Assembly: GCF_003334355.1 (NCBI RefSeq)
Contig: NZ_QOWP01000013.1
Strand: one strand, 5' to 3'
DNA length: 64,000 nucleotides
Source: Escherichia coli
GTDB lineage: Bacteria > Pseudomonadota > Gammaproteobacteria > Enterobacterales > Enterobacteriaceae
A program made the translations under genes and the position numbers. Below, piece after piece: positions 26,639 to 27,739 of the stretch. Under the pieces are notes generated by a model, which worked only from the letters and a program-made list of their open reading frames with translations, did not search any database and was not told where the DNA came from. Numbering within the stretch: the stretch's first letter is position 1; every line of letters starts with the position of its first letter.

Positions 26639-26699
26639 TTTCATCTTTGAATCAACATATTAAAATTCATCGAATGGCATCCTTGCTAACCAACAATGC

Positions 26700-26785
26700 A
26701 AAATAGGCAAAAAAATGCCCGCCCCAGCGATCCCAGAGCAGGCAGACAAAACATACCCAGTTTCATGATATGTTTTAAAGCGAAA
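26700..26785 (-). ncRNA. candidate flgL 3'UTR-derived sRNA (FlgO-like); boundaries approximate
   Basis: Minus-strand region just downstream of flgL stop ends in a GC-rich segment followed by a U7 tract near 26707-26716; a sigma-28-regulon sRNA from the flgL 3' UTR has been reported in E. coli; exact ends not determinable here. Confidence 0.3.
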
Positions 26786-27739
26786 TTATTTGTTGAGCTG
26801 GAAGAGCGACAATCCCTGCATATCGGTAAATGCTTTATACGATGCCTGCAATGCCGTTTGCTGCATGATGTAAGATGAAATAGTTGCATTCCAATCCACA
26901 TCAACCAGATCGCTCATCTGCTGCGTTTGCCCTAAAGCGCGATCGCTACCTAATGAATCCAGCGACTCCAGTTCGTTCAGCTGCGTGCCTAATTCCGCGC
27001 GAACAGTCAGCACATTGTTCAGCGAGTTTTTCAGTCCGCGGTTGGTTTTATCTAACGCCGCAGCGGCGGTTTCTTTATCCGCTTCGCTATCCGCGACCGG
27101 CGTTTTCAGGGCTGCGATGGCACTATCCAGCATGGCAAAAAGATTGGTTTCAGAAGCGCTACCGTCTGGTTCCGCTACCGCGTTGCTGGTAATACTGTCG
27201 AAAATTTTGTCACCCGTGTGCCCTATCACCATCGAACGCGAAGCATCGACCTGTTGCTTAATACTTTCTGTTCCGCCGACATAATCACCGTTAGCCTCAC
27301 TAAACGGCGCAGTTTCTGTTTTATAACCGGCAAAAATGTAACGCCCGTTACCGTCAGTGGTGTTCGCCAGATTCAGCAACTGGTCACGAAGCCCCTGAAT
27401 ATCCGTAGCCAGCGAGGCCCGGTCATCGTCACTCAAGGTGCCATTGCTGGCGTAGACAATTTTTTCCTGAGCATTCTGGATAGCAGTGGTGACCTGGCTA
27501 AGTACACTCTCTTCCAGTGACACTTTTTGAGTGGCGAAAGTACGTGCCAGCGTGTACTGGCTGTTTTGCGCCTGTGCCTGGGAGAGAACTACGGCTTGTG
27601 ATGCTGCAATGGGATCGTCAGAAGGGTTAACGACTCGCTTACCTGTCGACATCTGCTCGCCGTACTTCATCCATTCTGCCTGAGAATTGGTGATGCCACG
27701 CATGTTTTGCTGGTACATCATCTGGGTACTGAAACGCAT
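26786..27739 (-). CDS. flgL: flagellar hook-filament junction protein 3, 317 aa
   Basis: ORF-track protein MRFSTQMMYQQNMRGITNSQ... Confidence 0.95.
   Translation of the reverse strand: MRFSTQMMYQQNMRGITNSQAEWMKYGEQMSTGKRVVNPSDDPIAASQAVVLSQAQAQNSQYTLARTFATQKVSLEESVLSQVTTAIQNAQEKIVYASNGTLSDDDRASLATDIQGLRDQLLNLANTTDGNGRYIFAGYKTETAPFSEANGDYVGGTESIKQQVDASRSMVIGHTGDKIFDSITSNAVAEPDGSASETNLFAMLDSAIAALKTPVADSEADKETAAAALDKTNRGLKNSLNNVLTVRAELGTQLNELESLDSLGSDRALGQTQQMSDLVDVDWNATISSYIMQQTALQASYKAFTDMQGLSLFQLNK

Follow-up and report, generated by a model that had tools for sequence, protein, structure and literature searches.

FlgO, a 78-nt RNA at the 3' end of flgL in Escherichia coli, has two covarying hairpins and a nearly invariant loop

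The analysed DNA, referred to below as the window, is a stretch of 64,000 nucleotides in which flgK and flgL, both on the minus strand, are followed by the convergent gene rne (Table 1). The source is E. coli: a 271-bp query around the flgL 3' end matched strain 504239 at 100% identity and K-12 MG1655 at 99.6%, and annotated flgL and rne flank this segment in every matching record. The flgL stop codon, TAA, occupies positions 26788-26786 of the minus strand (protein C-terminus ...FQLNK*), and the distance between the stop codons of flgL and rne is 195 bp. The sole difference from K-12 within the 271 bp concerns the penultimate FlgL codon (positions 26792-26794, minus strand), which is AAC (Asn) in the window and AGC (Ser) in K-12.

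Table 1. Features of the flgL-rne region and of the flgJ-flgK gap (window coordinates)
Feature	Position	Strand	Basis
rne ORF	23405..26590	+	ORF list
Convergent rne terminator, 10-bp stem and T6 (neighbour, outside FlgO)	26610..26637	+	Terminator scan and sequence
FlgO small RNA, 78 nt	26709..26786	-	78/78 identity to b4826; published coordinates; primer SM041
U7 tail of terminator (expected 3' end and Hfq-binding tail)	26709..26715	-	Read from sequence; T run invariant in 77/77 aligned homologues
Hairpin 2 (intrinsic terminator stem-loop)	26716..26744	-	Terminator scan; fold; 6/9 consensus pairs compensatory
Hairpin 1	26747..26777	-	MFE and centroid fold; 8/9 consensus pairs with compensatory changes, 77 sequences
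flgL CDS (FlgO parent mRNA)	26786..27739	-	ORF list; RefSeq annotation in E. coli records with identical or nearly identical sequence
flgK ORF	27751..29394	-	ORF list
Sigma-28 promoter-like site, TCAAGTCC-N11-GCCGATAA	29428..29454	-	Pattern search, flgJ-flgK gap

The minus-strand sequence directly following the flgL stop codon is AUUUCGCUUUAAAACAUAUCAUGAAACUGGGUAUGUUUUGUCUGCCUGCUCUGGGAUCGCUGGGGCGGGCAUUUUUUU. An earlier reading made from the sequence only had proposed that the 3'UTR of flgL gives rise here to a FlgO-type small RNA with its own terminator, and this proposal is supported by sequence identity, by published coordinates and by a published primer. In the K-12 RefSeq record NC_000913.3, an ncRNA gene, flgO (b4826, product "small RNA FlgO"), is annotated at 1140986..1141063 and starts on the third base of the flgL stop codon. 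Alignment of window positions 26786..26709 (minus strand) to b4826 revealed identity at 78/78 bases. FlgO extends from the last A of the stop codon, its 5' end, to a 3' end that coincides with the end of the U7 tract; this point lies 77 nt from the flgL stop, in good agreement with the roughly 80 nt originally estimated. The FlgO coordinates given by Bar et al. (2021, Table 2; PMC8175672) are equal to those of RefSeq flgO. Melamed et al. (2023, eLife; PMC10578931) cloned flgO with the 5'-phosphorylated primer SM041, ATTTCGCTTTAAAACATATCATG, which corresponds to window positions 26786..26764 (minus strand) and begins exactly at the FlgO 5' end, while their reverse primer anneals at 26669..26691, past the terminator.

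With a probability of about 93%, the element at 26709..26786 is the flgO gene of E. coli, whose RNA is cut from the flgKL mRNA and carries its own terminator. FlgO has already been described and annotated, and the finding is not new: an annotated element was called correctly, which adds no new biology. Compared with K-12 FlgO (b4826; PMC10578931, PMC8175672), the locus, strand, 78-nt sequence and both boundaries are the same; the RNA itself shows no difference, and the only nearby one is the Asn versus Ser codon of FlgL. A search of Rfam 15 with positions 26000-27400 (E <= 10) yielded no family at its gathering score. The best match overlapping FlgO reached 22 bits, the gathering score being 70, and the sub-threshold matches were driven mostly by the rne terminator. 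Rfam 15 appears to have no FlgO model, and the residual value of the locus is comparative: it belongs to a family that Rfam does not model, in which two hairpins covary and one loop is invariant.

Folding of the 78-nt RNA, a check suggested together with the original proposal, gave two hairpins and an energy of -28.5 kcal/mol (shuffle mean -16.05, z = -3.92), with none of 200 shuffles being as stable. The RNA opens with a short AU-rich 5' tail; hairpin 1 follows, and a U-rich linker then leads to the terminator hairpin and the U7 tail. In the E. coli fold, hairpin 1 has an 11-bp stem (26777-26767 paired with 26757-26747) with a conserved core of 9 bp, and its 9-nt loop is AUGAAACUG (26766..26758). 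In the consensus scan the terminator stem comprised 12 pairs, of which 7 are G-C, with a loop of 5 nt (GAUCG, 26732..26728) and a following TTTTTTT; the U-rich stretch before it is UGUUUUGUCU. A terminator hairpin with a U tail and a preceding U-rich stretch constitutes the usual Hfq binding module. The string gcaaaaaaatgcccgcccc, placed by the sequence-only reading near 26707-26720, is indeed present, but it spans 26707-26725, with the A7 run (U7 of the minus strand) at 26709-26715.

Seven terminator-like sites were identified in the 801-nt region scanned, compared to 0.9 expected from shuffles. Between flgL and rne, the FlgO terminator is the only one of these on the minus strand with a proper T tract, and according to the scan it is the intrinsic terminator of the parent flgL mRNA that FlgO shares. 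The rne terminator has its stem at 26610..26633 and its T6 run at 26632-26637. The 3' ends of FlgO and rne are ~70 nt apart, the spacing of the convergent rne terminator that had been read from the sequence at the outset, and they belong to two distinct terminators with a spacer between them. The accompanying idea that the two ends could overlap was not upheld: as each gene has its own terminator and a spacer follows, any overlap of flgL and rne would need read-through. It is very improbable that one bidirectional terminator serves both flgL and rne, or that their transcripts overlap 3' in a manner that would lead to antisense regulation of rne. The genes are convergent and only 195 bp separate their stop codons, but there are two separate terminators with roughly 70 nt of spacer, and the rne hairpin lacks a T tract on the minus strand (tail GATTACTTTG). 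In addition, in 687 E. coli genomes the two terminators are separated by an 882-bp toxin-antitoxin module and both are kept.

The module was found in 687 of 5426 complete E. coli genomes, where it replaces the 66-bp rne-FlgO spacer (window 26644-26709). As exemplified by E. coli 042 (record L002, positions 2119-3000), it encodes a DUF1778/TacA-type antitoxin and a GNAT acetyltransferase toxin. On one side it joins directly behind the rne T tract, on the other exactly at the FlgO U tract.

Promoter consensus scans beside FlgO gave nothing above chance, and the sigma-28 consensus had no match near the flgL 3' end. The lack of an above-chance promoter near FlgO is consistent with the published conclusion that processing from mRNA, instead of separate transcription, gives rise to FlgO. 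One sigma-70-like match, TTGTCG-16-AATAAT (26812..26785, minus strand), is present near the flgL 3' end, and FlgO might on this basis be regarded as an independent transcript that starts from a promoter of its own within the end of flgL. We consider this highly unlikely, since a single such match equals the chance expectation (0.8), transcription from it would start inside the mapped RNA, there is no sigma-28 consensus nearby, and the published data point to a processed 5' end (PMC10578931).

On Northern blots FlgO was detected as a doublet of ~75 nt (Melamed et al. 2023, PMC10578931). In K-12 it was strongly reduced in a fliA deletion mutant (PMC10578931); the statement that a sigma-28-regulon sRNA had been reported from the flgL UTR was correct. 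FlgO peaks late in growth, as does FliX, co-immunoprecipitates with Hfq, being fourth in Hfq enrichment, and is depleted by a 5'-phosphate-dependent exonuclease, which indicates that it is processed from the flgL mRNA (PMC10578931). Expression, Hfq binding and processing are carried over from K-12 to the source strain by virtue of the identical sequence, and would be expected to be the same there.

The sigma-28 promoter-like site in the flgJ-flgK gap, located between ORFs 29460..30431 and 27751..29394, has a perfect -10 element and three mismatches in the -35 element. Its position fits the established class 3 promoter of flgKL. This site is likely to be the source of the sigma-28 dependence of both flgKL and FlgO. 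The following course of events is proposed. Transcription of flgKL would start at the class 3, sigma-28 promoter that lies upstream of flgK, supplemented by read-through of the class 2 flgB operon, and would end at the intrinsic terminator (26744..26709). The flgL mRNA would then be cut at the stop codon, probably, we infer, by RNase E, to leave the stable 78-nt FlgO, and FlgO would sit on Hfq via its terminator hairpin and U tail.

Processed 3'UTR sRNAs that act with Hfq, such as CpxQ and SroC, have no promoter of their own, and their 5' ends are produced by cleavage near the stop codon. In this class the terminator hairpin and U tail form the Hfq module, and there are defined single-stranded seeds and validated targets. 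FlgO resembles these RNAs in that it probably lacks a promoter of its own, in its reportedly processed 5' end near the stop codon, and in its terminator hairpin with a U tail. It differs in that strong conservation of unpaired sequence is confined to a hairpin loop, and in that the evidence for targets is weak. FliX, which originates in the fliC 3'UTR, is similar to FlgO as a processed, Hfq-bound RNA that stems from a late flagellar gene's 3'UTR and uses the terminator of its parent (PMC10578931). Unlike FlgO, FliX is longer (forms of ~200 nt and ~100 nt) and includes a REP element; its validated targets lie within the coding sequences of ribosomal proteins and of fliC, and it lowers flagella number, whereas FlgO has neither a validated target nor a phenotype (PMC10578931).

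An 86-nt FlgO query was found in 5424 of the 5426 complete E. coli genomes, in a single copy in each and with 90-100% identity. The comparative set comprised the flgL loci of 80 species-level genomes, mostly Enterobacteriaceae together with two Pantoea, in which the sequence following the flgL stop was read. A homologous two-hairpin 3'UTR was present in 76 of them, the two Pantoea included. These have a common layout, in which a short AU-rich leader precedes hairpin 1 and a U-rich linker connects it to a GC-rich terminator with at least 6 T; in most, the T run ends 77-85 nt after the flgL stop. The exceptions are three Pseudocitrobacter genomes with an unrelated flgL 3'UTR, and Enterobacter sp. 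ENT03, in which flgL is followed only by a short terminator without the FlgO element. In the case of Buttiauxella izardii and Intestinirhabdus alba, extra sequence shifts the FlgO element further downstream.

For covariation analysis, 77 sequences were aligned with MAFFT, without fitting to structure, and the consensus was determined by RNAalifold. The consensus contains 18 pairs in two helices, and 14 of these pairs show compensatory changes on both sides (hairpin 1, 8/9; terminator, 6/9). Standard pairs occupy 96.7% of the cells, compared to 86.5% in column shuffles, and 0/500 shuffles matched the alignment on any of five measures. When the 3' partners were shifted by 1-3 columns as a control, 26-52% of cells paired. 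That the FlgO homologues represent a structured RNA family located after flgL in most Enterobacteriaceae is well supported.

The two loops behave differently. The hairpin 1 stem occurs in several variants (AACAUAUC/GGUAUGUU, GGGCGUGCC/GGGCACGC, GAGCAUAUU/GGAUAUGCUU and others), while its loop, (U/G)GAAACUG, is nearly invariant: each base of GAAAC shows at least 95% conservation in the 77 sequences, and the longer form (A/U)(U/G)GAAACUG is found in 54/77. Since the stem varies while the loop stays fixed, the alignment suggests that the loop sequence itself may be under selection, beyond the hairpin. The terminator loop (26728-26732; alignment columns 67-77) is the C-rich CACCCC in most genera, GGGAUCG, including a GATC Dam site, in Escherichia, and unrelated in the Enterobacter group. 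Judged from these sequences, the terminator loop is subject to lineage-specific turnover, while the hairpin 1 loop is fixed. Melamed et al. reported that one FlgO loop differs in Salmonella (PMC10578931), which agrees with the variation of the terminator loop in the alignment.

The loop of hairpin 1 contains an AUG, from which a 26-codon ORF was considered (ATG 26766-26764, stop 26688-26686). It would specify a 26-aa hydrophobic peptide, MKLGMFCLPALGSLGRAFFCLFCIVG, and is in frame with a listed 72-aa ORF starting with TTG. It is extremely unlikely that the segment encodes this peptide, and the ORF was rejected as a gene: no Shine-Dalgarno sequence precedes the ATG, the ORF extends 23 nt beyond the terminator and leaves the 78-nt RNA without a stop codon, 16/77 homologues have no ATG, GTG, TTG or CTG at the aligned start triplet, and single-base indels break the frame in homologues.

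Overexpression of FlgO left both flagella number and motility unchanged, and its RIL-seq partners are few and poorly reproducible, the target set being smaller than those of the other three sigma-28 sRNAs (PMC10578931); its sRNA-likeness score is low, 0.07-0.15 (Bar et al. 2021, PMC8175672). These observations would suit an element that acts only in cis, as the flgKL terminator with a stabilising hairpin, the 78-nt RNA being a stable decay by-product held on Hfq by its U tail and having no regulatory function. The FlgO terminator being the only intrinsic terminator downstream of flgL fits the same explanation, which we regard as possible but unlikely. Termination needs hairpin 2 alone, yet hairpin 1 keeps 8/9 of its pairs by compensatory changes and its loop is nearly invariant across ~70 species; moreover, FlgO is among the most strongly Hfq-enriched RNAs in E. 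coli (PMC10578931). The conservation of hairpin 1, as far as can be judged from the alignment, argues against a role in cis only, and a pure terminator role for FlgO seems less likely.

Melamed et al. (2023) suggested that FlgO may titrate Hfq or recruit other proteins (PMC10578931). Our best guess is that the hairpin 1 loop makes a sequence-specific contact while FlgO is on Hfq, which could be base pairing with a small set of targets or competition for Hfq. A more specific proposal is that the loop (U/G)GAAACUG is the functional determinant of FlgO across Enterobacteriaceae, acting as a seed for sugar-transport mRNAs (e.g. gatC) or as a protein-binding loop. This is tentative, and we hold it to be rather improbable; if true, it would provide a concrete mechanism for an "orphan" sRNA and would link late flagellar expression to carbon uptake. 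The conserved loop offers a precise mutation target for probing the role of the abundant, Hfq-bound FlgO.

Among the RIL-seq partners of FlgO, gatC was recovered in four conditions, and msrB, the ptsG 5'UTR, ptsH, lamB, smpB, flgA and others in one to three (PMC10578931). In a sliding 30-nt duplex scan, a site on the coding strand of gatC, CGCAAAAUAUUCCCGGUUUCAUU (L084, positions 3012-3041, minus strand; about 2173011-2173040 in NC_000913.3), formed 21 pairs over 22 positions with FlgO nt 20-42, i.e. the loop and 3' arm of hairpin 1, at -25.4 kcal/mol. However, ~10 equally good sites were found in a 148-kb control, which corresponds to p ~0.1 for a gene of 1.4 kb, and the energies of whole-gene RNAduplex predictions for FlgO with flgA, gatC and gatA were within the shuffle range.

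The loop complement, CCAGTTTCA, has only one exact match in the window, the flgO gene itself. With one mismatch allowed, 26 matches were obtained versus 14.8 expected, and the search is not specific at this level. One of the one-mismatch matches is located in the sense strand of flgA, at 37368-37376 (plus strand; CCAGUUUCG / CCAGTTTCG), and pairs with the FlgO loop UGAAACUGG, including a terminal G-U; flgA appears once among the RIL-seq partners. The gatC and flgA sites are to be treated as leads, not as evidence. The best sigma-28 match in the window, TAAAGATT-N11-GCCGATAA (37572-37598, plus strand), has one mismatch and falls where the flgA ORF ends, close upstream of a 97-aa ORF (37642..37935). 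This 97-aa ORF is presumably flgM, and the position of the match fits the known class 3 flgM promoter.
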